Below are positions 26,047 to 41,904 of a DNA stretch of 64,000 nt, piece by piece; position 1 is the first letter of the stretch, and every line of letters starts with the position of its first letter. Position numbers and translations under genes: made by a program. The notes beneath the pieces were generated by a model, which ran no database searches, was not told the DNA's origin, and was given only the letters and a program-made list of their open reading frames with translations. This stretch comes from an uncultured Gammaproteobacteria bacterium (GTDB lineage: Bacteria; Patescibacteriota; Microgenomatia; UBA8517), in the NCBI GenBank assembly GCA_964540475.1, contig CAZIMC010000001.1:345575-409574 (forward strand). Direction: 5' to 3'.

Positions 26047-27186
26047 ATGGACAAAGTGGTAATCGTAATGCCAGCCTATAAGGAAGCTGAAAATATTGGC
26101 CCAATGATAGAGGAACTTGTTGGCAAAGAGTTCCCCAAAATAGACAATGCAGATATGCATTTGCTAGTGGTAAATGATCTACCCCCTGATGGATCAGCCG
26201 ATGACGGCACAGGAGAGATCGTCAAAAAGGCTATGGAAAAATACAAAAATCTCCACATTTTGGAGGATAAGAAACAGGGGTTGGGGTGGGCATATATTCG
26301 CGGTTTCAGGTATGCCATGGAGAAATTAAATGCCGATGCTGTAATGGAAATGGATGCGGATTTCCAGCATCCTCCGAGGTTTGTTAAAGATATGGTCGCC
26401 GCGTATCTAGACGGTGCCGATTATGTAATAGGTTCAAGGTATATTAAAGGCGGTTCCGTTCCTGCCGAATGGGCTTTCAGTCGTAAAGCGATAAGTTACT
26501 TTGGTAATTTATTCATCAGATTGGTTTTGACTAAACCCGGTCTGCACGATTTAACAACTGGTTTTAGATTAACAAGGGTTAAGGGGGTATTAGAAAAAAT
26601 AGATTTAGAAAATTTGATGGAACCCCACCTCTTTGCACACAAAGTGGATCTTTTATATCAAAGCGTCAAAAATGCCAAAAAGGTTACCGAAGTTCCTTTG
26701 GAGTTTGCCGCAAGGACAAAGGAAAAATCAAAGTTTAACCCTAAAGAAATGATTGGAACTTTCAAGGTGGCAATTATTTTGGGTATCAGAGACAAAAAAA
26801 GGTTTATTAAGTTTGGTATAGTAGGAACTAGCGGATATTTGGTAACGGCGTTCTCGATTCATTTTCTTGCAAGGACACCACTTCCTGAATGGGCGATTTG
26901 GGCAACCGCTACTGAGCTTGCAATCATCAATAATTTTACTTTCAACAATATCTGGACGTTTAGAGATGCAGAAATAAAGGGGTTTTGGCACCTTGTACAG
27001 AAATTCTTGCAATTTAACTTAACTTCAGCTGGCGCGCTTGTAATTCAGACTGTGGCAGGTACTATTGGTGTTTATTTTCTGGGACCTCAGTACAGGCAAT
27101 TAATCTTACCCTTCGTAACAGTTGGGCTGGTAATGCCTTATAACTACTTAATGTACAATCTGGTTATCTGGAGAACAAAGCTTTAA
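26047..27186 (+). CDS. Polyprenyl-phosphate sugar synthase: DPM1/GtrB-like GT2 fused to a GtrA-like 4-TM domain
   Basis: The N-terminal GT2 has 'VIVMPAYKEAENI' and the DPM1-type 'EMDADFQHPP'. The C-terminal ~120 aa form four TMs ('KFGIVGTSGYLVTAFSIHFLA...NNFTFNNIWTF') typical of GtrA-family proteins. Confidence 0.7.
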   Translation: MDKVVIVMPAYKEAENIGPMIEELVGKEFPKIDNADMHLLVVNDLPPDGSADDGTGEIVKKAMEKYKNLHILEDKKQGLGWAYIRGFRYAMEKLNADAVMEMDADFQHPPRFVKDMVAAYLDGADYVIGSRYIKGGSVPAEWAFSRKAISYFGNLFIRLVLTKPGLHDLTTGFRLTRVKGVLEKIDLENLMEPHLFAHKVDLLYQSVKNAKKVTEVPLEFAARTKEKSKFNPKEMIGTFKVAIILGIRDKKRFIKFGIVGTSGYLVTAFSIHFLARTPLPEWAIWATATELAIINNFTFNNIWTFRDAEIKGFWHLVQKFLQFNLTSAGALVIQTVAGTIGVYFLGPQYRQLILPFVTVGLVMPYNYLMYNLVIWRTKL

Positions 27187-27602
27187 GTTCTCACTAATAC
27201 TGGTCGAAACTTATAACCATATATTAAAGGTCCTTTGTCTTTCTCGCCCTGCGAAGGCTTGTTAAGTAATCTGGTTACCATTTCCACCTGCATACCAATT
27301 TTTAGTTCATCTGGGTCCACATCTGTGAGCTGAGCTGTTATTATCGGGCCTTCTTCAAGTTTAACCAGAGCACAATAATATGGTGCAAGCCCACCAAATC
27401 CTTCAGGTGCATCAAATACTTTTGTATAACTATATACTTCACCTCTACCAGAAAATTGATATTCCACCTTTGCACCTCCTCGGCATGATGGGCACACATC
27501 CCGCGGAGGGAAGATTTTTACTTCACAGTGCGGGCAGACTTCGCCCATTAGGCCATATCTGTATTTTTGCAGACGCCAATTTCGTGCAATTTCGTGCGAC
27601 AT
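27183..27602 (-). CDS. DUF35-like Zn-ribbon + OB-fold protein
   Basis: This 139-aa ORF has a C4 zinc ribbon 'CPHCEVKIFPPRDVCPSC' followed by an OB-fold-like region, as in the DUF35 acyl-CoA-associated proteins. No thiolase partner lies adjacent. Confidence 0.45.
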   Translation of the reverse strand: MSHEIARNWRLQKYRYGLMGEVCPHCEVKIFPPRDVCPSCRGGAKVEYQFSGRGEVYSYTKVFDAPEGFGGLAPYYCALVKLEEGPIITAQLTDVDPDELKIGMQVEMVTRLLNKPSQGEKDKGPLIYGYKFRPVLVRT

Positions 27603-27644: not shown

Positions 27645-28805
27645 TTAAAGAAATGCCGACCAGTCGGAGATTGGCATTACATTTTGTGTGATAAATGAAA
27701 GACTGAATAGGTATATTGGAATAAGTAATACAATCATTATGTATTTAAATTCTTTTCTAGTTAATGCATCAGAGTAACCCAAAATCAAAAATGGAGTAAT
27801 GGGCAGAGCGTACCTAACAATGTCTCTGTGCGAGACGAAAAGCAACGATATAAAGAAAATAATGGTAAACCAGGCAATATTGTGCATACCTTTTTGTATT
27901 AGCTTTATTATTCCAAATATTGCAATCAGATATACGAAGATAATTTCCTCCAACCAAAAAGTGCCTACCCAGGTGGCAGAATAGTTAAAGATCTGAAACG
28001 GCGGGAAAAACAGATGAATGTTATCACCTGATTTAAAGTAGACAAAAAAGTCGTTATAAGCTAGCTTGTACACGTAAAATACTCCTAATAGCGAAAGCGG
28101 AATCAGAAGCAAGGGGATTGCTTTGGGTAAATTAATATTTTTAACTAGCTTATTGATGGTTGTGTGGGCAATATCTTTTAAATGCGGAAACACAAGTGCT
28201 AACGCGAAGGCTATAAACAGTAATATTCCAGGTGACTTGGTGAATTGCGCTGCTGCTCCAAATAAACCCGCAAGCAAGTAGTTTTTTCGGTTAAAATAGT
28301 AAACAGCAGCCAGTATAGCAGCAATGAATAGTGTTTCAGCTGATCCAACTGATCTGACTACAAGCCATCTGGCTGGAAGTACGCTGAAGATGAAAGTTAG
28401 CCACAGAGCCTTCTCCGAGTCCAAATAATCTGAAGCTAATTTGTAAAAGAAATATATAGAAACGATTGAAAATATTGCAGTAACTGTTAATAAACCATAA
28501 GGGTACCCTGTTAGCGGAGAGATTAGCCTTACAAGAAACGGATAGAGTGGAAAGTGAGCAGAATAATACTCGTTACTTAAGGGGAAAGGGTAATTTTCCT
28601 GAATAGCTTGCGGGTTATACAAAGTTTTGGCAACCACCAAAAAGAGGGGACCATCATAATTTGCCACAATTGTTGCCATGCCGTTAGTAGCAAGTGGAAT
28701 TTGCCAAAACGCAGGTAACCTAAGAATAAATGGGGTCCACAGTAGAAAAGTGGGAATGAGTGCGAAAACAGAGATAACAATGAGAATTTTAAGACGTGTA
28801 AGCAT
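27645..28805 (-). CDS. Polytopic membrane protein (about 11 TM), putative GT-C-type glycosyltransferase
   Basis: This 386-aa ORF is highly hydrophobic with aromatic-rich loops ('YPFPLSNEYYSAHFPLYPFLVRL'). No family-specific motif is recognised. Confidence 0.4.
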   Translation of the reverse strand: MLTRLKILIVISVFALIPTFLLWTPFILRLPAFWQIPLATNGMATIVANYDGPLFLVVAKTLYNPQAIQENYPFPLSNEYYSAHFPLYPFLVRLISPLTGYPYGLLTVTAIFSIVSIYFFYKLASDYLDSEKALWLTFIFSVLPARWLVVRSVGSAETLFIAAILAAVYYFNRKNYLLAGLFGAAAQFTKSPGILLFIAFALALVFPHLKDIAHTTINKLVKNINLPKAIPLLLIPLSLLGVFYVYKLAYNDFFVYFKSGDNIHLFFPPFQIFNYSATWVGTFWLEEIIFVYLIAIFGIIKLIQKGMHNIAWFTIIFFISLLFVSHRDIVRYALPITPFLILGYSDALTRKEFKYIMIVLLIPIYLFSLSFITQNVMPISDWSAFL

Positions 28806-28882: not shown

Positions 28883-29590
28883 ATGCATTTAATTGACAAG
28901 CTTTCTGTATTTTTTCCGGCATATAACGAAGAGGCAAATCTAGAACGGACAGTCAAAAAGGCAGTTGAAGTCTTAAACAAAGTTGCCAAGGAGTGGGAAA
29001 TAATAATTGTTAATGATGGATCGACTGATAAAACAGGCGAGGTTGCACAAAATCTTGCTGAAAGCAATAAACAGATTAAGATAGTAACGCACAACCCTAA
29101 CAGAGGTTACGGAGCGGCATTTAAATCAGGACTTTATGCTGCAAAATACCCTTGGGTAACCTTTACAGATTCAGACGGACAATTCAATTTTTCAGAAATT
29201 ACAAATTTCCTGCAAAAGCAAAAAGGCACTGATTCCGATATGGTGATAGGCTACTATTTGGACCGTAAAGTTTCGCTTGGTAAAAAAATCACTAGCAAGA
29301 TGTGGGAATATTTAGTTTTCTTTTTATTTGGATTGAAAGTTCGGGATATAGATTGTGGATTCAAATTAATTCGCAAAAAAGTGATTGATACTATACCTAG
29401 GCTGGAATCTGAGAGAGGGGCATTTATATCGAGCGAATTTTTAATAAAAGCTAAGCGGGCGGGATTTAAGATTGTGGAAATTGGCGTAACCCACTATCCC
29501 AGAAAAGCTGGAGAAGGAACTGGACGCAAATTAAACGTTATAATTAAGAGCTTTATGGATCTATTTAGGTTGTGGAAGAAGCTGAGATAA
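28883..29590 (+). CDS. DPM1/GtrB/ArnC-like GT2 polyprenyl-phosphate glycosyltransferase
   Basis: It has 'VFFPAYNEEANL', 'IIIVNDGSTDKT', 'FTDSDGQFN' (DxD) and 'RDIDCGFKLIRKKV'. A GT-C gene lies immediately downstream. Confidence 0.7.
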   Translation: MHLIDKLSVFFPAYNEEANLERTVKKAVEVLNKVAKEWEIIIVNDGSTDKTGEVAQNLAESNKQIKIVTHNPNRGYGAAFKSGLYAAKYPWVTFTDSDGQFNFSEITNFLQKQKGTDSDMVIGYYLDRKVSLGKKITSKMWEYLVFFLFGLKVRDIDCGFKLIRKKVIDTIPRLESERGAFISSEFLIKAKRAGFKIVEIGVTHYPRKAGEGTGRKLNVIIKSFMDLFRLWKKLR

Positions 29591-31218
29591 ATTCTCAATG
29601 TACAAATTTTAATAAATCTTCAATGCTACGAATTTCAGCAATCAAAGAATGGATTAAGTCCCACAAGCTTGAGTTTCTAATTTTGACTCTGACACTACTT
29701 CTGGGGGCATTTTTAAGACTTTATAGAATTGACGAATACATGACTTTTCTTGGGGACGAGGGTAGAGACGCAATTATTGTAAGACGTTTTCTAACTCAAG
29801 GAGACTTAATGTTTGTGGGGCCTGGTACTTCAATTGGAAATATGTATCTTGGGCCACTTTACTACTACATGATGGCCCCAGCACTTTTACTGGCCAATTT
29901 TTCACCTGTTGGTCCTGCTGTAATGGTTGCACTACTTAATACCATAACTATATTTTTAGTCTGGTATGTTGCTCGAAAATGGTTTCCATCGCAAGGCCGG
30001 GCTCAAATTAATATTCCCGCATTAACGGGTGCTTTTCTTTATGCGATTTCAACAACCGTAGTAATATTTTCCCGATCCTCATGGAATCCAAACATAATGC
30101 CATTTTTTGCTCTCCTGTCAATTTATTCTATATGGAAGGTTTACAAAGAAAGAAAATACACTTGGCTAATTGTACTTGGGCTTTCGTTTGCATTTGTATT
30201 GCAATCACACTATCTGGGGCTACTTCTTATGCCACCACTCTTTATTTTTTACATTTTGACTATGAGAGATTTTGTATCGTTTAGGAATTTGAATTTAGAC
30301 TTTGCAAATAAACCAGACTTACGAAAGCTTTTGCAACAAACAACAGTTGGCTTATTACTATTTTTAGTACTAATGTCCCCACTCGTCGCTTTTGATTTCA
30401 GACATGATTTCCGAAATTTTAGAGGTATGATGGAATTTATCACAGGTTCAAAAGAAAATTATTCCCCGTCGCTTGAAAGCACATTATCTAAAATTTTACC
30501 GATGTCTAAGAGTGTGATAACAAGGCTGCTTGCTGCCAGAGATAAGACTCTTGGGATGCCGTTGTCTCTAGTTCTTTTAATCGGGGGCTTTATAGCGCTT
30601 CTCAAAAAAAAGAATAACGAAATTCTCCTATTACTTACTTGGCTTCTTTTTGGAAGCGTTGGTCTAGCTCTTCTTAGGCAGGAAGTATATGATCATTATT
30701 TTGGGTTTTTGTATCCTGTACCTTTTCTTTTATTGGCCGCTATTTTAAGCAAGATTAAAGATATTCAATTTCAAAAGCTATTTAGCGCACTTTCTGTAAT
30801 TATACTTACCCTTGCTGTAATAAAAGAATCGCCCATAAAAGACACGCCGGATAGGCAACTCGCAAGAAGTATAATAATTGCTGAGAAAATAGCAGAAGAA
30901 GCAAAGGGAGAAAGATTTAATCTAGCAACTATATCAGAAACAACCAATCGGGATACTTACCAGTATTGGCTAGAGCTTTGGGGTGAGCCAGTCGTTGATA
31001 CAGACCAGCTTAATCCTAAATTTACGGTCACAGATCAGTTATTTGTGGTCTGTGATAAACCGAGAGAGCTATGCAACCCAACGCATGATCCCTCTGCGTG
31101 GATAACCAATTTCGGTTGGAGTATAATTACTGACTCTTGGGAGATTGATGGCCGAACTATCTTCAAACTTGCCCACAGTGAGCAGTGGCTAAGAATGCGA
31201 GACAATAATGAATTATAG
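29572..31218 (+). CDS. ArnT/PMT (GT39/GT83)-like GT-C membrane glycosyltransferase
   Basis: This 548-aa ORF has about 11 TMs. The first extracytoplasmic loop carries 'FLGDEGRDAIIVRRF' (the DE motif of PMT_2-type GT-C enzymes). It has a C-terminal soluble domain. Confidence 0.6.
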   Translation: MEEAEINSQCTNFNKSSMLRISAIKEWIKSHKLEFLILTLTLLLGAFLRLYRIDEYMTFLGDEGRDAIIVRRFLTQGDLMFVGPGTSIGNMYLGPLYYYMMAPALLLANFSPVGPAVMVALLNTITIFLVWYVARKWFPSQGRAQINIPALTGAFLYAISTTVVIFSRSSWNPNIMPFFALLSIYSIWKVYKERKYTWLIVLGLSFAFVLQSHYLGLLLMPPLFIFYILTMRDFVSFRNLNLDFANKPDLRKLLQQTTVGLLLFLVLMSPLVAFDFRHDFRNFRGMMEFITGSKENYSPSLESTLSKILPMSKSVITRLLAARDKTLGMPLSLVLLIGGFIALLKKKNNEILLLLTWLLFGSVGLALLRQEVYDHYFGFLYPVPFLLLAAILSKIKDIQFQKLFSALSVIILTLAVIKESPIKDTPDRQLARSIIIAEKIAEEAKGERFNLATISETTNRDTYQYWLELWGEPVVDTDQLNPKFTVTDQLFVVCDKPRELCNPTHDPSAWITNFGWSIITDSWEIDGRTIFKLAHSEQWLRMRDNNEL

Positions 31219-32194
31219 TCAGTCTAAACAAATTCTTCAGGAGATTAAAAAGGCAAAAAGAATTCTCACAAATATACACAGGAGTAGTGACCCGGATTCT
31301 GTAGCCAGCGCATTGAGCCTTAAGGCGATAATTGAAACTATATTCAAAAAGGAAGTAACGGTTATAGCTGTTGATAATTCATATCAAGGTTATAAATATA
31401 TTTCTGGTACAGAGTGTGTCAGGGTGATAGAACCCTTAGAGTTCAATTTTTCAGAATATGACCTTTTTATTATTGTAGACTGCGAAATGCTGCAGCAAGC
31501 AGGAATATCTGCCGACAACGTATCTGATATAACCGTAATAAATATTGATCATCATCCAAAGAACAACATTAGAGGAAAACATAATTTGCTTGATAAGGCA
31601 GCCAGTTCCACTTCGGAAATTGTATATTTACTGAATAAGGATTGGCGGGTCAATATTAACAAGGAGTTAGCCACTACATTACTGGCCGGGATAATGGGTG
31701 ACACTGGTATATTTACATATGTAAACACCAAACCCAGAACCCTTAGCATTTCAAGTGAGTTGATAGAATCTGGTGCAGATCACCCTTATGTAGTTTACAA
31801 AATGACCCAATTTAACAGTTTAAACCTATTAAAATTGTGGGGAAGTATGCTGGATAAACTAGAAGTTGATACTAAGTATAATTTTGCCTGGTCTGCGTTG
31901 CCTTTTGAGGTATACAGTAAGTACAATTCAGCAATCAGTCCCAGTAAGTCTTTTTCTAACTTAATTATCAGGACTGTTGAAGGAACCAATTTTGGTATCT
32001 CAATGGTAGAAAAGGAAAAAAAGGTTTTGCATATAAGTATTAGATCTAGAGTTGAAGATTTTGATATTTCTCCTATAGCCAGGGAATTGGGCGGAGGCGG
32101 TCATAAAGCAGCATCAGGTGCGAGTGTTGCAGGCTTACCCTTTGAAAAGGCTGTCGCTAAAGTTCTTCGAACAGCAAGAAAATTCGCAAAATAA
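31208..32194 (+). CDS. DHH/DHHA1 phosphoesterase (NrnA-like nanoRNase/pAp phosphatase)
   Basis: The DHH motif is 'VINIDHHPKNN', there is a 'DCEM' acidic cluster, and the DHHA1 'GGGGHKAASG' motif lies near the C-terminus. Confidence 0.65.
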   Translation: MNYSQSKQILQEIKKAKRILTNIHRSSDPDSVASALSLKAIIETIFKKEVTVIAVDNSYQGYKYISGTECVRVIEPLEFNFSEYDLFIIVDCEMLQQAGISADNVSDITVINIDHHPKNNIRGKHNLLDKAASSTSEIVYLLNKDWRVNINKELATTLLAGIMGDTGIFTYVNTKPRTLSISSELIESGADHPYVVYKMTQFNSLNLLKLWGSMLDKLEVDTKYNFAWSALPFEVYSKYNSAISPSKSFSNLIIRTVEGTNFGISMVEKEKKVLHISIRSRVEDFDISPIARELGGGGHKAASGASVAGLPFEKAVAKVLRTARKFAK

Positions 32195-32242
32195 GAATAA
32201 ACATATTAGCTCTTTAGCTTTCAGGCAGTTTATCCGTATGTA

Positions 32243-35200
32243 TTGCTTTGTGTTAAACTTTGTAAAGTACGTATGATGTTTAAGCGTTTGCGACAACTAC
32301 TTTTGAGTAAAAACACCATATTGATAATTATATTAACCCTGTTGGTTATATGGGCAGGGAAGGGCATCTTTAAATATAATGTTTTCAGTACACATGACGG
32401 AAATCACCACATTGCCAGATGTTATGACGCAGTCCAAACAATAAAGGAGGGGCATTTTCCGTTAAGATGGGCGGGAAGTCTTAATTACGGTTGCGGTGTG
32501 CCTATTTATAATTTCTTTTACCCACTGCTTTACTATCTTGTTATTATTCTCGAAGCTATATCTGGTAGGATAATATTTTCACTTAAAGTTATATATTTCT
32601 TATCACTTCTTATTTCGACGATATTTTTCTACCTCTGGATGAAAGTTGAGACAGGCAGAAAAAGCGCAGCATTTGCTTCGTCTCTGCTTTACCTATTTGC
32701 CCCATACCGGTTTTCACTGATATTTGTCAGGGGGTCGCCAGAATTTTTAGCTTATGCCTTGTTCCCGGTGGTTTTGTATATTTATTCACTTTTCTTCAAG
32801 GCTGAAAATAGGCGGACAAAGTTACTATTAGCCTTCATGGCAGTCTTAAGCGGTGGGGCATTGGCAATTTCGCATAATTTTACCGTTCTTTTCCTGATGC
32901 CAATACTTCTACTATATTTAATTGTAAAAATATTAAATACAAGAGACCCGGAGTGGGCACTTGCTATTTTTAGTTTTATCAGTAGCTTCACTCTAAGTGC
33001 ATTTTTTATTCTGCCGGCAGTCGTAGAGAAAAAATTTACTAAACTAGGGTCTTTAGATATTGTCAACTATAAAGAACACTTCCCGACTTTATGGCAATTA
33101 ATTCGCTCTAAGTGGGACTACTTCTATTCTTCACCAGGCGTTGAAAATGATGGAATGTCTTTTATGCTGGGATATGCACAATGGGTAGTACTTGCCGTAT
33201 CAACGACTTTCCTTGTAGTTAGTTTTGTTAAACATAGGAGTAGACTGAAAGCATTTATTTTCAAAAACGCCAGTGTATTGGCTTCACTTACCCTATCGTT
33301 ACTAAGCGTATTTATGATGTTACCTGTGTCCGAACCCTTGTGGGAAGTTTTACCATTTATTTCTGACATTCAGTTCCCGTGGCGTTTATTGGGTATTGCA
33401 ACATTCTTTATTAGTGTGTTATTCGGTTTCCTCCTTACAAGTATAAAAAATAAAAAAGTTTACTGGCTAATCCTTGTTATTGTGTCGATTTTGGCAATTT
33501 ATGGTAATAAAAATCACATACTTCCCCAACCAGTCTCGGTTGAAGATTTATACATGTATAGCGATTTTGATAAGTTGCACTATCACAGGTATACGACTAC
33601 AACTTTGGGTGATGACATTATTGCGCCATCCGCGCCGAGTGCTTGCTATTATTCCAGCGAAAAGGTTTATTGGGAAGATAGCTCACCCCTTGATCACGAA
33701 GTGTTAAGTTCCGGCAATACTTTCGCGGATATTAAAATTAATATTAATGAACCACCAGCTGAACGAAGCGTGGTATTACACCTCTCGTATTTCCCCAATA
33801 CCTTCGATGTGAACGTAAATGGAATTAAAATCGATTACCGGGATTGTCAAGGGTTGGTGTGTTTTAACCCCGACATATTAAGAGAAGGTACTAATTTCAT
33901 ATCATGGGGTGTTAAGCAAACTCCGATACAAAATATAGGAAATGTAATCACACTAATAACATTGGTAGGGTGGTTTGTATTCGTGATAGTGTTTTACAAC
34001 AAGAACAGCAAATTCACCAGGAAAGATTTAGCTATATTTCTAACAATATTTTGCACCCTAATTGTTTTTATCTTTTTAAGATTTACTAACATACATCAAA
34101 GAATTAGTTTTGGTTGGGATCAGGAGAGAGATGCAGTGGCGGCAACCGAGATACTACGTGGAAATTTTACTTTGATTGGCCCACAAGCCTTGGGGCCTGA
34201 AGGATTTTTCTTGCCGCCATATTTTTACTACTTTCTTTCTCCGTTTTACTTTATTACCAGTGGAAATCCACTAGCGATGATACTCTTTTTGGCTGCCTAT
34301 AATCTTACTTTCTTTTCTCTAAGTTTTATTGTAATCAAAAGATTATTCGGTTTGTACCCCGCTCTGTTTTTATTGGCTTTCTGGGCAGTTAACCCAAGAA
34401 TTGTTCAAATGGATACCACCTCTTGGAATCCTCTCTTAATTCCTTTGTTTGTGATACTTTTGTTCTATTTGTATTACTCATACTATATTAAAAACAAGCT
34501 TCAGACTTTATTGTTGATAGGAATAATGTATGGAATTGGCTTGGGTATGCATATACAGTTTTTGTTATTATTTCCATTTGTTATACCCCTGGTCCAGGCG
34601 ATATTAAAAACTTCACTTAAGCCGAGGCTTAAAAGAGCAGCCTCATTGCTTTTTGGTTTTATGCTCACACTCTTGCCGCTTGTAATATTTGATATTCGAA
34701 ATAATTTTCTAAACCTGAATTTAATGTTAGGATTTTTATCTAAAAATTCTCAAAGTAGCGGATATCCGTTTCTTCAAACTTTCGACAGATTCTTTTACAG
34801 TCTTACGGGTTTATATTCGATACCTGGTCTGGGAATAATTTCCTATATACTGGGCTTGCTTTTTATTATTTTTATAAGATATAAGATTACTCAGAAAACT
34901 TTTGAAAAGAAATTTTTTGAAGGATTATCGTATGTGTGGGGGTTAACGCCTTTCTATTTTTTGATTTATCGTGGCAGTGTTTCTGAATATTACTTCAATT
35001 ATTTAATACCAGTATTTTTAGTTGCATTAGCTTTTGCAGCAGGCAGGATTTATCAATATTTGGCAATAAGAAAGATGTCGTTTTTTATGGTACTAGTAGT
35101 CCCTGTGCTTTTATTCTGGCTTTTGAGAAGTTATGGTGACTTAAAGCCCCACGCCTTAAGCCTTTTCTTTAAAGACAAAGCGATAAGTTTTTTGTCAACA

Positions 35201-35434
35201 GTGTCAGCGAAAAGCCCCGAGTTTAATGTATCCTTTGATGCTCCGCACAACGAAGATGCAGGGTTTAGATACTTATTAAGATATCACAAAGTTCCAGCTA
35301 CTGGGGATCCTCGCGATCCACTGGTTGAGATAATTATCCCACCTGATAAAAAGCCCGAGCCTTATATTTTTGGTGGAATTGGTGTATATTTACCTGATGG
35401 ATTTGCTTCTTCAGTTGGTTTAAAGGAAAATTAG
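32243..35434 (+). CDS. Large (1063 aa) GT-C-fold membrane protein, family B paralog (YfhO-like?)
   Basis: The N-terminal loop is 'FSTHDGNHHIARCYDAVQTIKEGHFPLRWAGSLNYGCGVPIYNFFYPLLYY', followed later by 'FPWRLLGIA'. These blocks are shared with the ORFs at 43836, 46237 and 47891. It has more than 20 TM helices. Confidence 0.5.
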   Translation: MLCVKLCKVRMMFKRLRQLLLSKNTILIIILTLLVIWAGKGIFKYNVFSTHDGNHHIARCYDAVQTIKEGHFPLRWAGSLNYGCGVPIYNFFYPLLYYLVIILEAISGRIIFSLKVIYFLSLLISTIFFYLWMKVETGRKSAAFASSLLYLFAPYRFSLIFVRGSPEFLAYALFPVVLYIYSLFFKAENRRTKLLLAFMAVLSGGALAISHNFTVLFLMPILLLYLIVKILNTRDPEWALAIFSFISSFTLSAFFILPAVVEKKFTKLGSLDIVNYKEHFPTLWQLIRSKWDYFYSSPGVENDGMSFMLGYAQWVVLAVSTTFLVVSFVKHRSRLKAFIFKNASVLASLTLSLLSVFMMLPVSEPLWEVLPFISDIQFPWRLLGIATFFISVLFGFLLTSIKNKKVYWLILVIVSILAIYGNKNHILPQPVSVEDLYMYSDFDKLHYHRYTTTTLGDDIIAPSAPSACYYSSEKVYWEDSSPLDHEVLSSGNTFADIKININEPPAERSVVLHLSYFPNTFDVNVNGIKIDYRDCQGLVCFNPDILREGTNFISWGVKQTPIQNIGNVITLITLVGWFVFVIVFYNKNSKFTRKDLAIFLTIFCTLIVFIFLRFTNIHQRISFGWDQERDAVAATEILRGNFTLIGPQALGPEGFFLPPYFYYFLSPFYFITSGNPLAMILFLAAYNLTFFSLSFIVIKRLFGLYPALFLLAFWAVNPRIVQMDTTSWNPLLIPLFVILLFYLYYSYYIKNKLQTLLLIGIMYGIGLGMHIQFLLLFPFVIPLVQAILKTSLKPRLKRAASLLFGFMLTLLPLVIFDIRNNFLNLNLMLGFLSKNSQSSGYPFLQTFDRFFYSLTGLYSIPGLGIISYILGLLFIIFIRYKITQKTFEKKFFEGLSYVWGLTPFYFLIYRGSVSEYYFNYLIPVFLVALAFAAGRIYQYLAIRKMSFFMVLVVPVLLFWLLRSYGDLKPHALSLFFKDKAISFLSTVSAKSPEFNVSFDAPHNEDAGFRYLLRYHKVPATGDPRDPLVEIIIPPDKKPEPYIFGGIGVYLPDGFASSVGLKEN

Positions 35435-35451
35435 TAATACACTAAACTAAA

Positions 35452-36204
35452 ATGCACATATCAATAATCGTCCCATGTTATAACGAACGTGAGAATCTAA
35501 AGCGAGGAGTATTGAATGAGGTTTATAAATTTTTGATACAAAAGAAATATGATTGGGAAGTGATAATTTCAGATGACGGGAGCACGGATGACAGCATAGA
35601 GCTTGTAAAGAGTCAGATAAAAGGTAAAAAGGGATTTAGGCTACTGGAAAATCCACATGGCGGCAAGCCACTAGCACTTCATTATGGAATTAAAAGCGCC
35701 AAGGGAAACCACATTCTTTTTACCGACATGGATCAATCAACTCCAATTAAGGAACTTGATAAGTTAATGGACGCAGTCACTTCCGGGGTTGGTGCTGTTA
35801 TTGGCTCTAGAGGGCTTGTTCGTCGTGACTTTCCAATTTATAGAAAAGCAGGCGCAATTGTTTTTGCAACAATTAGGAGAGTTCTGATTCTTCCTGAAAT
35901 AACTGATACACAGTGTGGATTTAAACTATTTGAAGCAAGGACTTTAAAAAAAGCCTTTCCTAAACTGGAGTTTTTCAAATCCAAGGAAAGAGTGGTTGGC
36001 TGGAAAGTCACCTCCTACGATGTTGAGCTTTTACACATCATTAAAAAAATGGGTCGCACTATTATTGAAGTTCCGGTAATTTGGAACGATAAAGATACCA
36101 GTAAAGGCAAAGGGGGAACACTATCAAGATATCTTCGTGAGTCTCAAGAAATGCTTATGCAGATTCTTAGAGTGAAGGTTAATGACTGGAAAGGTTTGTA
36201 TTAA
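35452..36204 (+). CDS. DPM1/GtrB-like GT2 polyprenyl-phosphate glycosyltransferase
   Basis: It has 'ISIIVPCYNERENL', 'VIISDDGSTDDS', 'FTDMDQSTP' and 'TDTQCGFKLFEARTL', with a GT-C gene directly downstream. Confidence 0.7.
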   Translation: MHISIIVPCYNERENLKRGVLNEVYKFLIQKKYDWEVIISDDGSTDDSIELVKSQIKGKKGFRLLENPHGGKPLALHYGIKSAKGNHILFTDMDQSTPIKELDKLMDAVTSGVGAVIGSRGLVRRDFPIYRKAGAIVFATIRRVLILPEITDTQCGFKLFEARTLKKAFPKLEFFKSKERVVGWKVTSYDVELLHIIKKMGRTIIEVPVIWNDKDTSKGKGGTLSRYLRESQEMLMQILRVKVNDWKGLY

Positions 36205-36210
36205 TTCAAG

Positions 36211-37713
36211 GTGTTTAAAGACAGAAAAATTTTGCTTACACTCGGGGCTATAATGTTTCTTGCCCTAGTTCTGAGGCTAATTAGTCTTACTTCGTTTCCG
36301 ATTTTTGCAGACGAGGCTATATATATTAGATGGGCTCAGGTTATGCGGGCTGAACCTGCCTTACGGTTCTTGCCGCTTTCAGACGGAAAACAACCACTTT
36401 TTATGTGGGTTATGATTCCTTTTCTTAAAATATTTAGTGATCCGCTCTTGGCAGGGCGATTATTATCTGTACTAAGTGGTGTCGGGACAGTCGCGGGGAT
36501 TTTTGTGCTTTCATTAGCGTTGTTTCAATCGAAAAAGGTAGGGATGGTGGCTTCGGTAATGTATGCAGTTTCTCCCTTCAGTGTGTTTTTTGACCGCATG
36601 GCACTGGTAGATTCACTTTTAGCGTTCTTTGCGGTTTGGACAGTTAACTTTAGCCTCATGGCAATAAAAGAAATTCGCCCTGATTACGCAATGATTGCCG
36701 GTTTTTTCCTCGGCGGAGCGCTTTTAACCAAATCACCAGCCCTATTTATTGCGTTACTGTTGCCCTCGCTTGTTTTGATTGCCAGTAAGAAAAGCAAAGT
36801 TCCACTAAGAAATTACTTAAAAATAGCGGGGCTTTTCGGTGCGACATATATAATCGGTTACGGTTTATACAACATTTTGCGCCTCGGCCCTGAGTTTCAT
36901 ATGATTTCCCTAAGGAATGCGGATTATGTGTTTCCATTAGGTCATATTATTACCAGTCCATTAAATCCATTCCTTGGAAATTTAGGGAGTGTAGCAAACT
37001 GGTACCTATATTTAGGGCCCGGGGTAGTTTTTCTTCTTTTGCCACTGTCGGTTTATCATTTATTTAGAAATAAGAAAAAAGAGTTACTTATACTTTTACT
37101 GTTTGCATTCTTACCGGTTCTGATTCAATCGGTTTATGCTAAAGTTTTTACGTCAAGGTATATTCTTTTTACAGTACCGTATGTATTTGTATTGTTGGCT
37201 GCGGGACTTAATGAGACCAAGCCTGTAATAAAGAAGATGTTTGGTGCGGCCTTGATAATATTTGTTGCGCTTTCGCTGATACATAATTTATTGATAATTG
37301 CAAACCCGCAAAGGGCACTTCTTCCTGAGAGGTCGGGATACCTTGAACGTTGGACTGCGGGGTATGGAATCCGAGAAGTTGCGGAAAGTATTAGAAAGGA
37401 ATACGAGAGTAACCTGGGACAAACTATAGTGGTAGGAACTGAAGGTTATTTCGGAACTTTGCCTGACGGCCTGCAAATATATTTGAACGACCTGCCGGAG
37501 GTGGTTGTGATTGGCGTTGGTTTAGACTTAAACGAGGTCCCAAAAAGTCTGTTGGAATCAAAAGCTTTCGGTAATAAAACATATCTGGTTATTAATAATA
37601 CACGGTTAAAAGCTAACCCAGATGAATTGAAGGCGGAATTAATAGAAAGCTACCCTAAAGCGCAGCCGAAACATGGGCAAAGGGAAGAATTACTGTTTTT
37701 TGAAGTTAAATAG
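36211..37713 (+). CDS. ArnT/PMT-like GT-C membrane glycosyltransferase
   Basis: The ORF begins at a GTG start and encodes 500 aa with about 11 TMs, an 'IFADEAIYIRWAQ' first-loop DE motif and a C-terminal soluble domain. It is the closest paralog of 59153-60712. Confidence 0.6.
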   Translation: MFKDRKILLTLGAIMFLALVLRLISLTSFPIFADEAIYIRWAQVMRAEPALRFLPLSDGKQPLFMWVMIPFLKIFSDPLLAGRLLSVLSGVGTVAGIFVLSLALFQSKKVGMVASVMYAVSPFSVFFDRMALVDSLLAFFAVWTVNFSLMAIKEIRPDYAMIAGFFLGGALLTKSPALFIALLLPSLVLIASKKSKVPLRNYLKIAGLFGATYIIGYGLYNILRLGPEFHMISLRNADYVFPLGHIITSPLNPFLGNLGSVANWYLYLGPGVVFLLLPLSVYHLFRNKKKELLILLLFAFLPVLIQSVYAKVFTSRYILFTVPYVFVLLAAGLNETKPVIKKMFGAALIIFVALSLIHNLLIIANPQRALLPERSGYLERWTAGYGIREVAESIRKEYESNLGQTIVVGTEGYFGTLPDGLQIYLNDLPEVVVIGVGLDLNEVPKSLLESKAFGNKTYLVINNTRLKANPDELKAELIESYPKAQPKHGQREELLFFEVK

Positions 37714-37766: not shown

Positions 37767-39266
37767 ATGTCAGTAATTAATCAACATCAGGACCATCTGG
37801 ATCCGACTCTTGAGATTAGCCTTGATACTGTCAAGAAACGTGCAGTTCAAGGCATAATCGCACTAACAGGCAGGACATTTATTTTAAATATTATTGCCTT
37901 TGTAGCTCAGGGATTTTTATGGGCGTATCTTAACGAGTTTCAGTTTGGGGTGTTTTGGATTGTTTCTGCGGTTGTGAACTTCATGGCGTATTTTTCGGAT
38001 ATTGGCTTGGCAGCTGCTTTGATTCAGATGAGAGAAAAACCGCAGGAGAGTGACTTAAGGACAATATTTACTGTTCAACAAACTCTGGTTTTCCTTCTTT
38101 TAATCATTCTTTTTATAGTAAGCCCGCTTCTTGCACGAACACATAACTTATCAAATGAGGGAATAATGCTTTTATATGCATTAGGGTTTTCTTTTTTCCT
38201 ATCCTCTTTAAAAAGTATCCCTTCAGTGCTACTGGAGCGCAAGCTCGAGTTTGGAAAATTCGTTATTCCACAGGTTTTGGAGACATTTGTTTACAGTATT
38301 GTTGTTGTAATTCTTGCCTGGAGGGGATTTGGTATTACAAGTTTTACCTATGCTGTAGTTATCCGAGGAATCGTTGGGATGACAGCAATTTATCTTTTAG
38401 AGCCCTGGAAGCCGGGTTTTGCTTTTTCTAAGGATGCGTTAAAAAAATTATTATCCTTTGGCATACCATATCAGCTAAACACCTTTCTGGCAGTTCTTAA
38501 AGATGATGGTATGACAATTCTTCTGGGAGGGATTTTAGGGCCTGCGGGAATTGGGATATTGGGTACTGCACAAAGGCTTGCTTCATATCCTTTACGTTTT
38601 TTTATGGATAATGTAACAAAGGTTACATTTCCGGCCTTTTCTAGAATGCAGGATTCGCCGCGAGATCTGCAAAACAGTTTAACCAGATCAATATTTTTTA
38701 TATGTTATCTTGTTTTTCCTTCGACCGTTGGTATGGTTATATTATCTCCGGTGCTTATACAGATTGTTCCAGGGTACGCTAAATGGGAGCCGGCACTGAT
38801 TCCTTTAATGCTTATTTCGATAAATACACTATTTGCGTCTGTCACGACACAGTTAACCAATGCACTAAATGCAACCGGGAGAATTAAAATTACGTTTTTC
38901 TTGATGATTGGCTGGACTGTCCTGACCTGGCTTTCTGTTCCATACTTGTCAGCAACCTTTGGGGTTAATGGTGCAGCTGCCGGATATGCATTGGTTGGGA
39001 GCTCTTCAGCATTGGCTATAATCATTGCACGAAGGTTCGTTAAATTTTCGTTACTTGCATCAGTTGTTAAGCCAGCACTTGCGACAATTGCAATGGGGGC
39101 AGCCTTGATTATTGGCAGAAACTTGCTTGCCGCAAGTTTGTCTGGTTTTTCTTTCTTAATCATTTTGGGGGCAATTACCTACGGATTATCATCATTTATT
39201 CTAATTGGAGCAAATCTGATCCACGATGTACGTCACAGTATAAAAACTATTTTTGCTAGACAGTGA
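37767..39266 (+). CDS. Wzx-like polysaccharide/oligosaccharide flippase (MOP superfamily)
   Basis: This 499-aa ORF has about 14 TMs. The Wzx/MurJ-like polysaccharide-biosynthesis-protein layout is supported by 'GIPYQLNTFLAVLKDDGMTILLGGILGPAGIGILGTAQRLASYP'. Confidence 0.6.
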   Translation: MSVINQHQDHLDPTLEISLDTVKKRAVQGIIALTGRTFILNIIAFVAQGFLWAYLNEFQFGVFWIVSAVVNFMAYFSDIGLAAALIQMREKPQESDLRTIFTVQQTLVFLLLIILFIVSPLLARTHNLSNEGIMLLYALGFSFFLSSLKSIPSVLLERKLEFGKFVIPQVLETFVYSIVVVILAWRGFGITSFTYAVVIRGIVGMTAIYLLEPWKPGFAFSKDALKKLLSFGIPYQLNTFLAVLKDDGMTILLGGILGPAGIGILGTAQRLASYPLRFFMDNVTKVTFPAFSRMQDSPRDLQNSLTRSIFFICYLVFPSTVGMVILSPVLIQIVPGYAKWEPALIPLMLISINTLFASVTTQLTNALNATGRIKITFFLMIGWTVLTWLSVPYLSATFGVNGAAAGYALVGSSSALAIIIARRFVKFSLLASVVKPALATIAMGAALIIGRNLLAASLSGFSFLIILGAITYGLSSFILIGANLIHDVRHSIKTIFARQ

Positions 39267-39312: not shown

Positions 39313-40224
39313 GTGAGTAGCATTACAGTCTGTATAAATACATTAAACGAGGAAAAAAATCTTCCCAAAGCCATTTCTTCTATAAAAAGTATAGCAAGCG
39401 ACATAGTAGTAGTTGACATGATGAGCGATGATGAGACTGTAAAGGTGGCCAAAAAGCTTGGTGCCAAGGTATATGAATATAGAAGAATGGGGTATGTAGA
39501 GCCAGCGAGAAACTTTGCGTTGTCAAAGGCGACTGGGGATTGGGTGTTAATTCTGGATGCGGATGAGGTTATTCCGCCAGCTTTAGCCAAGAAATTCGTA
39601 GAAATTGCCAGAAAATCTACCTTTACTTACTACAGGGTTCCAAGGAAAAATATCAACTTCGGTAAGTGGATGAGACATTCGCGATGGTGGCCGGATTATA
39701 ATATCAGGTTTTTCAAAAAGGGAAGTGTTACCTGGAATGACGAAATTCACTCAATCCCGGTTACTTACGGCAAAGGCGCAGATCTACCTTCTGAAGAGCA
39801 ATTTGCCATAGTCCATTCAAATTATTCAACCGTTGAGCAGTATCTTTCCCGCATGGAGAGGTATACGACCATTCAAGCTGATGAGTTGTTAAAGAAAAAT
39901 CACAAGTTTATTTGGAAAGACTTAGTTAAAAAACCAATGGCAGAGTTTTTAAGCAGGTACTTTTTAGCGGAGGGTTACAAAGATGGTTTGCACGGACTTG
40001 CCCTTTCGGGATTACAGGCTTTTTCCGAATTTATCGTATTCTTAAAAGTCTGGCAGAAAGAGAAGTTTTTAGAACAAACTACCACTCCAGACGAAATTGA
40101 AGAACAATTTAGCGAAAGTATGAACGAAATTAAATGGTGGATATTTGAGACTCGGATTAGAAACGCCAAGCCAATATCCGCCTCAGTTAATAAACTCGCC
40201 CGCAAAATATTCTTGCGAAAATGA
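39313..40224 (+). CDS. Family 2 glycosyltransferase
   Basis: 'ITVCINTLNEEKNLPKAISSI' and 'VLILDADEVI' (DxD) indicate a soluble GT2-A fold. Confidence 0.7.
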   Translation: MSSITVCINTLNEEKNLPKAISSIKSIASDIVVVDMMSDDETVKVAKKLGAKVYEYRRMGYVEPARNFALSKATGDWVLILDADEVIPPALAKKFVEIARKSTFTYYRVPRKNINFGKWMRHSRWWPDYNIRFFKKGSVTWNDEIHSIPVTYGKGADLPSEEQFAIVHSNYSTVEQYLSRMERYTTIQADELLKKNHKFIWKDLVKKPMAEFLSRYFLAEGYKDGLHGLALSGLQAFSEFIVFLKVWQKEKFLEQTTTPDEIEEQFSESMNEIKWWIFETRIRNAKPISASVNKLARKIFLRK

Positions 40225-41138
40225 CTACGAAGATTTATGCAGTACTAGTTAACTGGAATGGAGTGTCCGACACACTGGCTTGTGTTAAATCATTGCAAAG
40301 AGCTGTTAGACGTGGATTTACACTCGATATAGTTGTAGTTGATAATGGTTCGACCGACAATTCACCTGAGACTCTTCGGAAAAATTATTCCGGGGACAAC
40401 AAGGTACACCTGATTTTAAGCAGAAAAAATAACGGATTTACTGGAGGCAACAATAAAGGTATATCATATGCTCTTAAGAGGGAGGCCGATTTTGTGCTTG
40501 TTATCAATAACGACACTGAGGTACACCAGGATCTTGTAATTAACTTATTTGAAGCCTTTAAAGATAATTCCAGTGTCGGTATTACTTCACCAAAGATCTA
40601 TTTTTCTCCCGGATTTGAATATCACAAAAAATATAAAACCTCGCACATAGGCAAAATTATTTGGTACGCCGGAGGGATTTTGGATTGGAATAATGTTTAT
40701 GGACAGAATCGCGGTGTTGATGAGGTGGATCAGGGTCAGTTTAACCAGGTAGAGGAAATTGATTTTGCAACGGGAGCTTGTATGATGATTGACAGCCGGT
40801 TGCTAAAAAAAATTGGCTACTTCAACGAAAAATATTTTGCTTATCTTGAAGATGTTGAATTTTCCTGGCGTACAAAACTGGCTGGCTGGAAGATAATATA
40901 TGTGCCGAGCGCATGCTTATGGCACAAAGTTTCCCAGTCGTCGGGAATCGGCAGTAACCTAAATGATTATTTTATAACCCGAAATAGATTGCTTTTTGGC
41001 ATGAAGTATGCAAAGTTACGCACAAGACTTGCATTAATAAGGGAAGCGATTAGATTCGTGGTAAATGGTAGAAAGTGGCAGAAAACCGCGGTTATCGATT
41101 TTATGACCGGAAACCTGGGAAAGGGGAGTTTTGAATAA
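40221..41138 (+). CDS. Family 2 glycosyltransferase (rhamnosyltransferase-like, 'VNWN' subgroup)
   Basis: 'YAVLVNWNGVSDTLACVKSL', 'VVVDNGSTDNS' and 'YLEDVEFSWR' are typical of WbbL-like GT2 rhamnosyltransferases. The dTDP-rhamnose genes are in the same window. Confidence 0.7.
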   Translation: MTTKIYAVLVNWNGVSDTLACVKSLQRAVRRGFTLDIVVVDNGSTDNSPETLRKNYSGDNKVHLILSRKNNGFTGGNNKGISYALKREADFVLVINNDTEVHQDLVINLFEAFKDNSSVGITSPKIYFSPGFEYHKKYKTSHIGKIIWYAGGILDWNNVYGQNRGVDEVDQGQFNQVEEIDFATGACMMIDSRLLKKIGYFNEKYFAYLEDVEFSWRTKLAGWKIIYVPSACLWHKVSQSSGIGSNLNDYFITRNRLLFGMKYAKLRTRLALIREAIRFVVNGRKWQKTAVIDFMTGNLGKGSFE

Positions 41139-41904
41139 TATGCGTATCTCGGCAATTGTTATTACAAAAAATGAGGAAAAAATGCTTCCGGACTGCCTTA
41201 AAAGTTTATCATGGGTTGATGAGATAGTTGTAGTTGATAGCGGTTCATCCGATAAAACAGTAAATATTGCAAAAAGGAACGGAGCCAAGGTGTTTTTAAA
41301 CAAAAGTTTTAGTTTCTCTTCTTCAAGAAATCTAGGCTTAAAGCATGCAAAAGGTGAATGGGTACTATATATAGATGCTGATGAGAGGGTAACTGAAGAA
41401 TTGAGGGGAGAGATTGTGCTGGTGATAGGAGGAACTATTAACAACTATAATGCCTATGCTATTCCCCGGAGAAATATAATTTTAGGGAAGGAGTTTAAAT
41501 TTGGCGGACAGAGGCCGGATTATGTTAAGAGATTGTTCTTAAAGGTAAACCTGGAAAACTGGGATGGAGAGCTTCACGAGGAACCAAGGTTTAAGGGGGA
41601 GCTGGGGCACCTTAAAAATTCGCTTTTACACATTAAACATGAGTCTTTTCCTGAGATGGTAGAAAAGACCAATAATTGGAGTGAAGTGGAGGCAAAACTA
41701 ATGTTCCTTGCAAAACATCCGCCAATGACTATACCCAGATTTTTCTCGGCAATTTTGCGTGAATTTTGGTTGCGGATGATCAGGCAGTTGGCATTCTTGG
41801 ATGGCGCTGAGGGAATAATGTATGCAATGTATCTGGTGTTTAGCAGGTTTATAAGTTACGCCAAACTTTGGGAACTTCAATACAAGAAAGGCATAGTAAA
41901 ATGA
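41131..41904 (+). CDS. Family 2 glycosyltransferase
   Basis: 'ISAIVITKNEEKMLPDCLKSL', 'VVVDSGSSDKT' and 'YIDADERV' are GT2 motifs. Confidence 0.7.
   Translation: MNNMRISAIVITKNEEKMLPDCLKSLSWVDEIVVVDSGSSDKTVNIAKRNGAKVFLNKSFSFSSSRNLGLKHAKGEWVLYIDADERVTEELRGEIVLVIGGTINNYNAYAIPRRNIILGKEFKFGGQRPDYVKRLFLKVNLENWDGELHEEPRFKGELGHLKNSLLHIKHESFPEMVEKTNNWSEVEAKLMFLAKHPPMTIPRFFSAILREFWLRMIRQLAFLDGAEGIMYAMYLVFSRFISYAKLWELQYKKGIVK

Follow-up and report, generated by a model that had tools for sequence, protein, structure and literature searches.

Envelope-glycan locus, its synthases and its GT-C proteins

We analyzed a 64,000-nucleotide stretch of contig CAZIMC010000001.1 (the window, whose positions are used throughout; genes are named by their first coordinate and lie on the plus strand unless marked (-)). 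It carries one big envelope-glycan locus, in a genome of low GC content (~0.38), with modules in which a glycosyltransferase of family GT2 resembling polyprenyl-phosphate sugar synthases adjoins a glycosyltransferase of the GT-C fold. The locus is made up of rmlABCD, trmD, these GT2/GT-C modules, a Wzx-type flippase gene, five further GT2 genes and a GT4 gene (39313-46280), and many GT-C genes. Homologues of the window proteins bear names such as Candidatus Woesebacteria and place the host among the Microgenomates, within the candidate phyla radiation (CPR).

Four open reading frames (ORFs), at 26047-27186, 28883-29590, 35452-36204 and 57989-58732, match the GT2 family PF00535 with 77, 111, 87 and 70 bits, respectively. 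A preliminary description of this DNA had picked out all four as polyprenyl-phosphate sugar synthases with DADFQHPP-like and D.DGQ motifs, and both ORFs and motifs are present as it had given them. The class assignment likewise stood in PDB, NCBIfam and profile searches, which identified all four as enzymes of the type of dolichyl-phosphate mannose synthase (DPMS), GtrB and ArnC and not as processive or ordinary GT2s: their best matches, over the whole catalytic domain, were ArnC, GtrB, the DPMS of Pyrococcus furiosus (PfDPMS), AglJ, PpgS and a dolichyl-phosphate (Dol-P) hexose transferase. The locus has five more GT2s, which served as negative controls and matched rhamnosyltransferase, MftF, EpsD or SunS types.

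The 235-residue protein at 28883-29590 (GT2a) is ArnC/GtrB-like, with PDB matches to ArnC (2e-17, residues 4-213), GtrB (3.5e-16) and PfDPMS (1e-11); the NCBIfam model for ArnC covers the full catalytic domain at 79 bits. Its motif DSDGQ (residues 96-100) has the DxDxQ form of ArnC, with D96, D98, G99 and Q100 invariant in the family alignment. The 250-residue protein at 35452-36204 (GT2b) is DPMS/GtrB-like: as a single sequence it was less clear-cut, with a PDB match to PfDPMS (8.6e-13, residues 1-233), and a profile of 21 orthologues matched PfDPMS, GtrB and ArnC (3e-24, 2e-23 and 2.5e-17); its top NCBIfam scores include generic GT2 families. Invariant residues in GT2b are D92, D94 and Q95 of the DMDQ motif (residues 92-95), G118-S119-R120, R131 and the run D152-T-Q-C-G-F-K158. 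For the AglJ/PpgS/DPMS-like protein at 57989-58732 (GT2c, 247 residues), a single-sequence PDB search found nothing; NCBIfam matches were AglJ (80.6 bits), PpgS (61.9 bits, full length), Dol-P-hexose transferase (48 bits) and GpgS (31 bits, N-terminal part only), the top PDB match of the profile was PfDPMS (6e-7), and PfDPMS was also the best fold match (E = 7.5e-12, TM-score 0.70) of an AlphaFold2 (AF2) model with pLDDT 81. GT2a, GT2b and GT2c have no hydrophobic or transmembrane (TM) segment, like human DPM1, PpgS and GacI.

The donor-site motifs diverge, reading DADFQH in 26047, DSDGQF in GT2a, DMDQST in GT2b and HPDYQY in GT2c, and each is invariant within its own orthologue family (GT2a, GT2b and GT2c alignments). 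In PfDPMS, D91 and Q93 bind metal and diphosphate, R117, R131 and S135 bind the acceptor phosphate, and the first Asp of DxD does not ligate the metal (PMC5526996). All five key residues are kept in 26047; GT2b keeps the Asp, GSR and R131, with the Gln of its motif shifted by one position and Ala or Gly aligned to S135; GT2c keeps the equivalents of D91 and Q93 and an invariant GSR, its alignment to PfDPMS ending at about residue 122; and GT2a has the ArnC/GtrB pattern instead of GSR in the acceptor-phosphate region. This divergence of the donor sites fits different nucleotide-sugar donors, in line with the earlier suggestion that several different sugars are handled.

The synthase at 26047-27186 joins its GT2 domain (PF00535) to a full-length four-TM GtrA/DPMS domain (PF04138, residues 255-375). 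Residues 3-377 align to residues 24-374 of PfDPMS (5MLZ; E = 1.3e-38) with 34% identity overall and 33% in the TM domain; DADFQHPP stands at residues 103-110, and equivalents of GSR, R131 and S135 are present. In a HMMER alignment of the TM domain, PfDPMS Asn277 is kept, Arg341 is replaced by Asn, Asn248 by Thr and the gate residue Phe338 by Met. Asn at the Arg341 position is typical of type-III DPMS outside the Thermococcales (PMC12992685). The same 2026 paper finds strictly defined type-III DPMS only in hyperthermophilic archaea and proposes that its GtrA-like TM domain may flip Dol-P-mannose (PMC12992685). Measured against the strict definition given there, 26047 has the GT2 domain, the four-TM domain and DADxQH, and it departs from the N248/N277/R341-or-N/F338 pocket and gate (PMC12992685). 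We read it as a bacterial variant of the type-III enzyme that falls outside the strict definition, and probably as a polyprenyl-phosphate-mannose synthase. It had been described as a GtrB-GtrA fusion; a GT2 domain is indeed fused to a GtrA-like four-TM domain, but the arrangement is not new, being the established type-III DPMS architecture (5MLZ), and its flippase activity is hypothetical.

Between 27.6 and 63.5 kb we count 11 supported GT-C genes, namely 27645(-), 29572, 32243 (two modules), 36211, 43836, 46237, 47891, 53356, 56239, 59153 and 61855, together with two weak ones, 51547 (GT87-like) and 60663(-) (MptA-like), and two unclassified polytopic proteins, 49552 and 55224. With 11-15 GT-C genes in the locus, the three GT-C partners named in the preliminary description understate their number. 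Ten locus proteins reach the Pfam gathering score for PMT_2, PMT or PTPS_related; the GT-C proteins have 7-28 hydrophobic segments.

The GT-C nature of those three partners was confirmed. The gene following GT2a, at 29572-31218 (GT-Ca; NCBI start 29623), encodes an ArnT-like GT-C (PMT_2, 36 bits) whose AF2 model (pLDDT 87) has ArnT as its best PDB match (5f15/5ezm, TM-score 0.57-0.59), all other fold matches at E < 0.01 being GT-Cs as well (AglB, STT3, ALG12, PglB, Pmt4, DPY19, ALG9, Emb and AftA). A DEGRD motif in its first outer loop is invariant, with D62-E63 in ORF numbering corresponding to D45-E46 in P0241 numbering. The gene following GT2b, at 36211-37713 (GT-Cb), encodes a PMT/ArnT-like GT-C (PMT_2, 55 bits; PMT, 40 bits) with D34-E35 after the first TM helix (TM1). 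Its paralogue at 59153-60712 scores 18.6 bits for PMT_2 (cutoff 26.1) and is assigned to GT-C by 28% identity to 36211 (E = 1e-21) and by D26-E27 after TM1. An acidic motif directly after TM1 is found in 11 GT-C proteins, as DE in 29572, 36211, 53356, 56239, 59153 and 61855 and as DD or DG in 27645, 32243, 43836, 46237 and 47891. Judging from the topology and from the fusion junction described below, this acidic loop would face outward, and family precedent together with the GT2 pairing suggests that the GT-Cs use a polyprenyl-phosphate-linked donor on the outer face.

Conservation, fusions and paralogy of the modules

About 29 genes make up the locus, 38-52% of them GT-C-like, and on this basis three GT2-then-GT-C adjacencies would be expected by chance in the window with p ~0.05-0.14, which is not significant. 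The case for the pairs therefore rests on conservation across genomes and on natural fusions. A scan of species-representative genomes found GT2a orthologues in at least 516 species genomes, of which the best 80 loci (Woese-, Shapiro-, Collier- and Amesbacteria; GT2a identity 63-74%) were compared with the window. GT2a and GT-Ca overlap by 19 nt in the window if the GTG start is used, or are separated by 32 nt with the ATG start given by NCBI. A GT-Ca orthologue (31-65% identical) directly follows GT2a in every locus with enough sequence (73/73), the maximal ORFs mostly overlapping by 4-19 nt. The core order that recurs is GT2a, GT-Ca (then a DHH phosphoesterase and extra GT-Cs), GT2b, GT-Cb, a GT2::GT-C fusion resembling 43836, and Wzx.

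In some relatives the two enzymes are one polypeptide. Six 90%-identity clusters (P0264, P0289, P0322, P0328, P0330 and P0343) are GT2a::GT-Ca fusions of 717-739 residues, in which the first 230 residues share 47-53% identity with GT2a and the remainder 50-53% with GT-Ca; an exhaustive search of 50%-identity representatives yielded at least eight full-length fusion clusters (708-741 residues). No fusion was found among the 80 closest genome loci; they occur in more distant lineages. In locus L167 the fusion occupies the orthologous position, in an order that matches the window gene for gene: rmlABCD, trmD(-), GT2-GtrA, DUF35(-), GT-C(-), the fusion, DHH, GT-C, PTPS-type GT-C and GT2. At the junction the C-terminal helix of the GT2 part runs directly into TM1, followed by the FLGDEGRD loop, a topology consistent with a synthase in the cytoplasm and a GT-C active site facing outward. 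These natural fusions are the strongest evidence for the GT2a/GT-Ca pairing, an ArnC-like/ArnT-like couple, and they suggest that the GT-C serves as the membrane anchor of GT2a.

GT2b and GT-Cb are separated by a 6-nt gap in the window, and GT-Cb lies directly behind GT2b in 54 of 62 loci, most of the exceptions having another GT-C or an insert of ~1 kb between the two. We also observed that the divergence of GT2b does not track that of GT2a, L002 being the closest GT2a relative and having a GT2b only 39% identical to that of the window.

Of the three GT2-to-GT-C pairs that had been proposed, the comparison thus upheld the first (73/73, and fusions) and the second (54/62), but not the third, drawn as 57989 to 59153. 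These two genes are separated by 420 nt, the sole ORF in between being 58738-59184(-) (148 residues, one TM helix), and the gene that abuts GT2c is the upstream GT-C 56239-57969, at a 19-nt gap. In 84 related loci carrying GT2c homologues (four genomic contexts and 80 metagenomic loci), no ORF was most similar to 59153, and no orthologue of it was found there; the pair as drawn was rejected.

Upstream of GT2c the window has the array GT-C 53356-55227, polytopic 55224-56312 and GT-C 56239-57969 (PMT_2 and PMT matches), and downstream the GT-C 61855-63498 (PMT, 45 bits; PMT_2, 44 bits), with 53356, 56239 and 61855 mutually 28-31% identical. GT2c homologues in close relatives (71-79% identical) are set within runs of 4-7 GT-C genes, and a GT-C or polytopic neighbor was present in 11/11 loci at 58% identity or above and in 13/18 at 44-58%. 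A GT-C like 53356 or 56239 lies directly upstream of GT2c in the relatives and one like 61855 downstream, often after a small membrane ORF; the 61855 orthologue (57-61% identical), found behind GT2c homologues in L083-L089, is the most conserved downstream neighbor. The small ORFs that follow GT2c in relatives are on the plus strand and encode membrane proteins of 76-162 residues with 1-4 TM helices; no GacJ/DPM3-like plus-strand membrane ORF follows GT2c in the window, where the 148-residue minus-strand ORF alone is present. Compared with relatives, the interval 58733-61832 seems to contain three inserted genes, ORF 58738-59184(-), GT-C 59153-60712 and the polytopic, weakly MptA-like 60663-61832(-), of which 59153 and 60663(-) have the appearance of an insertion specific to this genome. 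Since GT2c is embedded in a conserved GT-C array and 59153 is not conserved, GT2c is better read as one donor for many transferases, and it looks like a single donor synthase for several GT-C paralogues.

A further association links 26047 to the convergent gene 27645-28805(-), which encodes a GT-C-like membrane protein (PMT_2, 27.4 bits; NCBIfam 'cell surface glycopolymer formation protein', 45 bits, below cutoff). A 26047-like gene on the plus strand with a 27645-like GT-C on the minus strand stands directly upstream of GT2a in 36 of 64 loci, and 27645(-) is a candidate transferase for the product of 26047. This convergent association makes a fourth pairing, which the preliminary description had missed.

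Co-duplication of GT2 and GT-C partners, which had been proposed for checking, left no sign in an all-against-all comparison. The four synthases are 22-28% identical to one another, and orthologues in other classes reach 63-79%. The two closest GT2s, 28883 and 35452, have GT-C partners that give no match to each other, and the two closest GT-Cs, 36211 and 59153, adjoin GT2s (35452 and 57989) with no BLAST match at E = 1e-3. Co-duplication was rejected given this low paralogue identity and the disagreement between GT2 and GT-C similarity patterns, both of which point to ancient, independently assembled modules instead of recent tandem co-duplicates.

Surrounding genes

The rmlA, rmlB, rmlC and rmlD genes (21883-25271; Pfam NTP_transferase, GDP_Man_Dehyd/Epimerase, dTDP_sugar_isom and RmlD_sub_bind) are syntenic in L167 and are predicted to make dTDP-L-rhamnose, feeding the co-located glycan pathway. 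A Wzx/MOP-family flippase is encoded at 37767-39266 (Polysacc_synt_3, 180 bits; MOP flippase model, 139 bits), syntenic behind the GT2b/GT-Cb block in most loci, and is a candidate exporter of an undecaprenyl-diphosphate (Und-PP)-linked glycan or of lipid-linked monosaccharides. The gene at 31208-32194 encodes an NrnA-like DHH/DHHA1 phosphoesterase (Pfam DHH and DHHA1; NrnA model, 110 bits, below cutoff) and overlaps the stop of GT-Ca by 11 nt (translationally coupled); its position is kept in loci of the Woesebacteria type as well as in L166 and L167, with 4-nt overlaps in the latter two.

Next to it, 32243-35434 encodes a tandem double GT-C of 1063 residues, with PTPS_related at residues 89-440 and PMT_2 at residues 658-804. 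Its N-terminal half resembles 46237, 47891 and 43836, its C-terminal half is 26% identical to 29572, and orthologues of ~1020-1056 residues occur in L001, L166 and L167. A set of PTPS_related-type GT-Cs with a DD motif after TM1 occupies 43836-46280, 46237-47919 and 47891-49552. The first of these is a second kind of GT2::GT-C fusion, of a non-DPM, rhamnosyltransferase-like GT2 (residues 1-230) to a PTPS_related GT-C, which suggests that a single chain combines a transferase acting in the cytoplasm with one acting outside it. Its orthologue adjoins Wzx in most Microgenomates loci.

Several observations lie apart from the modules. Between 26047 and 27645(-), a gene at 27183-27602(-) encodes a DUF35/ChsH2-type protein with an OB fold and a zinc ribbon, and is kept in L167; the family usually goes with thiolase or 3-hydroxy-3-methylglutaryl-CoA (HMG-CoA) synthase, and no such partner of either kind lies near this gene. 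About 20 kb before the glycosylation locus, 4521-5165 encodes a DedA/VTT-domain protein, from a family in which flippases that recycle undecaprenyl phosphate have been proposed. The region 13871-19168 holds, immediately ahead of a sortase gene (18617-19168), three large ORFs of 433, 741 and 376 residues with no Pfam match; they may encode substrates of the sortase or surface proteins of a pilus-like kind, and hence possible glycosylation acceptors. Two mirror ORFs of 198 residues each, 19224-19820(-) and 19228-19824(+), have no Pfam match either. Finally, among L002-L081 many records of metagenome-assembled genomes are titled 'uncultured Gammaproteobacteria', 'uncultured Pseudomonadales', 'Spirochaetia' or 'Alphaproteobacteria'; on records with this Microgenomates-specific locus such titles are probably taxonomic mislabels.

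Proposed pathway, alternatives and known systems

Taken together, we consider it likely that the GT2 proteins make polyprenyl-phosphate-linked sugars which GT-C enzymes transfer on the outer face of the membrane, in modules conserved across Microgenomates. What we observed are the family and fold assignments, the gene order, its conservation and the fusions; the lipid carrier, the sugars, the flipping step, the acceptor and which GT2 serves which GT-C of the array belong to the proposal that follows. At the cytoplasmic face, the four divergent GT2s would each move a sugar from a nucleotide sugar to polyprenyl phosphate; the resulting polyprenyl-phosphate monosaccharide would be flipped across the membrane, and GT-Cs with their catalytic Asp-Glu/Asp loop facing outward would move the sugar to an extracytoplasmic acceptor. 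GT2a and the ArnT-like GT-Ca probably associate physically, the complex holding the TM-less synthase at the membrane; in some relatives the two are one polypeptide. GT2b would partner GT-Cb, and 26047, with its own GtrA-like TM domain, probably feeds 27645(-) and other GT-Cs. GT2c would give a single donor to the paralogous GT-Cs 53356, 56239, 59153 and 61855, much as polyprenyl-phosphate-mannose and decaprenyl-phosphate-arabinose each serve GT-C arrays in mycobacteria. The acceptor is most likely a surface glycan containing rhamnose, the product of the co-located rmlABCD, GT2/GT4 and Wzx genes, with surface proteins as the alternative.

Several points weigh against this pathway. The density of GT-C genes makes bare adjacency inside the window weak evidence. 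None of the four GT2s reaches an NCBIfam equivalog cutoff; best scores against cutoffs are 79/529 bits for ArnC, 80.6/325 for AglJ, 61.9/370 for PpgS and 60/500 for PgfS, with 18-20/567 for ArnT on the GT-C side, so that the proteins belong to the same class without being orthologues and sugar specificity cannot be transferred. GT2b orthologues are far more divergent (33-60% identity) than those of GT2a (63-74%), and GT2b specificity may therefore differ between genomes, the divergence of GT2b and GT-Cb hinting at replaced modules or altered specificity. A search with Pfam among window ORFs of at least 100 residues found no stand-alone GtrA, leaving one GtrA-like domain for four synthases, so that besides Wzx flipping has no protein assigned to it; the flippase candidates are limited to Wzx 37767 and the GtrA-like domain that 26047 carries. 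No initiating phosphoglycosyltransferase or Wzy was recognized in the window. GT2c, finally, has an atypical donor motif, HPDYQ (residues 88-92), in which His replaces the first Asp of DxD, and its fold matches GpgS of Mycobacterium tuberculosis and M. hassiacum nearly as well as PfDPMS (Foldseek E = 4e-11, TM-score 0.57-0.68).

GpgS is a soluble enzyme acting on 3-phosphoglycerate, and GT2c could accordingly be a GpgS/MpgS-like soluble protein whose product is a compatible solute or primer of the glycosyl-phosphoglycerate type, its place among GT-Cs being incidental. The near tie of the Foldseek matches, the replaced aspartate and the empty single-sequence PDB search all point that way; the AglJ, PpgS and Dol-P-hexose transferase profiles nevertheless score well above GpgS (31 bits), PfDPMS comes out on top in both the fold and the profile-to-PDB searches, the GSR acceptor-phosphate motif is invariant, and the association of GT2c with GT-C arrays is conserved, which makes a GpgS-like role very improbable in our judgment. 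We give as little credence to the idea that the short GT2s in general are ordinary cytoplasmic enzymes extending an Und-PP-linked repeat, beside GT-Cs through crowding and with no donor/transferase relation to them. The share of GT-C-like genes and the chance estimate given above, the generic GT2 families among the top NCBIfam scores of 35452 and the lack of TM helices in the short GT2s would be accommodated by it, but it leaves unexplained the adjacency in 73/73 and 54/62 related genomes, the recurrent GT2a::GT-Ca fusions and the whole-length catalytic-domain similarity to ArnC, GtrB and DPMS, including acceptor-phosphate residues; moreover, the truly ordinary GT2s of the locus classify differently.

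A question of another kind is what the GT-Cs modify. They could be PMT-like O-glycosyltransferases acting on secreted, sortase-anchored or surface-layer (S-layer) proteins, their paralogues differing in protein or site specificity and the donor chemistry being as proposed above, as in actinobacterial Ppm1/Pmt and streptococcal PgfS/PgfM. PF02366 (PMT) matches for 36211, 56239 and 61855, the presence of Pmt4 and Pmt1/2 among the fold matches of 29572 and of PgfS among the NCBIfam matches of the GT2s, and the sortase and large unannotated ORFs 8-15 kb upstream are all compatible with protein acceptors. The best structural match of 29572, however, is ArnT, which has a lipid acceptor, the PMT matches being weaker, and Pfam reported no MIR domain, which is typical of eukaryotic PMTs. 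The modules also sit between rmlABCD and the Wzx/GT2/GT4 block, the same layout that rhamnan side-chain systems have (PMC8035078). We therefore regard protein acceptors as possible, though on the whole unlikely, and favor a rhamnose-containing glycan.

A bolder version of the favored pathway would make GT2a and GT-Ca an obligatory synthase-translocase-transferase complex, coupling inner-face synthesis to outer-face transfer, in which the GT-C domain or the complex itself passes the lipid-linked sugar across and no GtrA-type flippase is needed. We think this rather improbable; if true, it would be a self-contained machine in a core envelope-glycan pathway of reduced-genome, probably episymbiotic bacteria, among 11-15 GT-Cs over ~36 kb. 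Whatever the route of flipping, the GT2::GT-C fusions offer a clean genetic argument for physical association of synthase and transferase and handy single-chain constructs for structures of donor hand-over and of the flipping step.

CPR/Patescibacteria live attached to other cells, and to our knowledge their envelopes are essentially uncharacterized. The block is conserved at 63-79% identity over Woese-, Shapiro-, Collier- and Amesbacteria, which suggests a core surface glycoconjugate and a possible target for labeling, enrichment and host-interaction work. Multiple 'dolichol-phosphate mannosyltransferase' genes receive a passing mention in genome papers on CPR (PMC4736985, PMC6031116), and in the literature we found no description of conserved GT2/GT-C modules or their fusions in CPR. 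Three-component and multi-component glycosylation systems are established elsewhere (PMC11127046, PMC8035078). The known paradigm is left unchanged and is extended to a new lineage, with two additions: the Rosetta-stone fusions, and how much of a very small genome is given over to GT-Cs.

Among the known systems, the type-III synthase PfDPMS is matched by 26047 along its whole length (34% identity), including the four-TM domain, DADFQH and equivalents of R117, R131 and S135. The host of 26047 is bacterial and mesophilic, however, Asn248 and Phe338 are replaced by Thr and Met, and the carrier is presumably a bacterial polyprenyl phosphate, not dolichyl phosphate. A full-length homologue in a mesophilic bacterium qualifies the recently claimed restriction of this architecture to hyperthermophilic archaea.

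ArnC and ArnT of Gram-negative bacteria are the synthase of undecaprenyl phosphate (Und-P)-linked 4-deoxy-4-formamido-L-arabinose (Und-P-L-Ara4FN) and the transferase of 4-amino-4-deoxy-L-arabinose (Ara4N) to lipid A. The best solved relative of GT2a is ArnC and the best structure for GT-Ca is ArnT (TM-score ~0.58), and the logic would be the same, a GT2 making a polyprenyl-phosphate sugar and a GT-C transferring it on the outer face. The window proteins nevertheless fall far below the ArnC and ArnT cutoffs (79 against 529 and 18-20 against 567 bits), GT2a lacks the two C-terminal TM helices of ArnC, and there are no ArnA, ArnB, ArnD, ArnE or ArnF genes. We know of no CPR bacterium that makes lipid A, so the acceptor must differ from that of ArnT.

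The GtrA/GtrB/GtrC systems of Shigella and Salmonella phages likewise encode an Und-P-sugar synthase beside a GT-C (PMC11127046), and GtrB is the second-best PDB match of GT2a and of the GT2b profile. The window differs in having no stand-alone GtrA, TM-less synthases, several donors and 11-15 GT-Cs, and it carries a chromosomal core locus, conserved vertically, not a phage cassette.

The GacI/J/K/L variant of Streptococcus pyogenes also combines a GT-A synthase that has no TM segment with a flippase of Wzx type and a GT-C, beside rhamnan genes (PMC8035078). With GacI/J/K/L and with CsbB/GtcA/YfhO, GtlA/GtlB and RgpI/RgpH, multi-component transmembrane glycosylation systems of other Gram-positive bacteria, the window shares the TM-less GT-A, the Wzx-type flippase, the GT-C, and rhamnose genes with rhamnosyltransferases (PMC8035078); it differs in that no GacJ-like partner was identified in the window, anchoring apparently being provided by the GT-C, as the fusions suggest, and in having many more GT-Cs. 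Mycobacterial Ppm1/PpgS (Rv3631) with its GT-Cs (Pmt, PimE, MptA-C, Rv3779, Emb/Aft) offers further parallels in its short TM-less synthases, in the full-length PpgS match of GT2c (62 bits), in the weak GT87/MptA matches of 51547 and 60663(-), and in the use of one lipid donor for many GT-C paralogues, as proposed for GT2c. The scores are, however, far below the family cutoffs, arabinan and phosphatidylinositol mannoside (PIM) genes are absent, and the lineage and envelope are unrelated. By this comparison, the locus appears to resemble most closely the streptococcal rhamnan side-chain variant, with the GT2c part following the mycobacterial logic of one donor for many GT-Cs.

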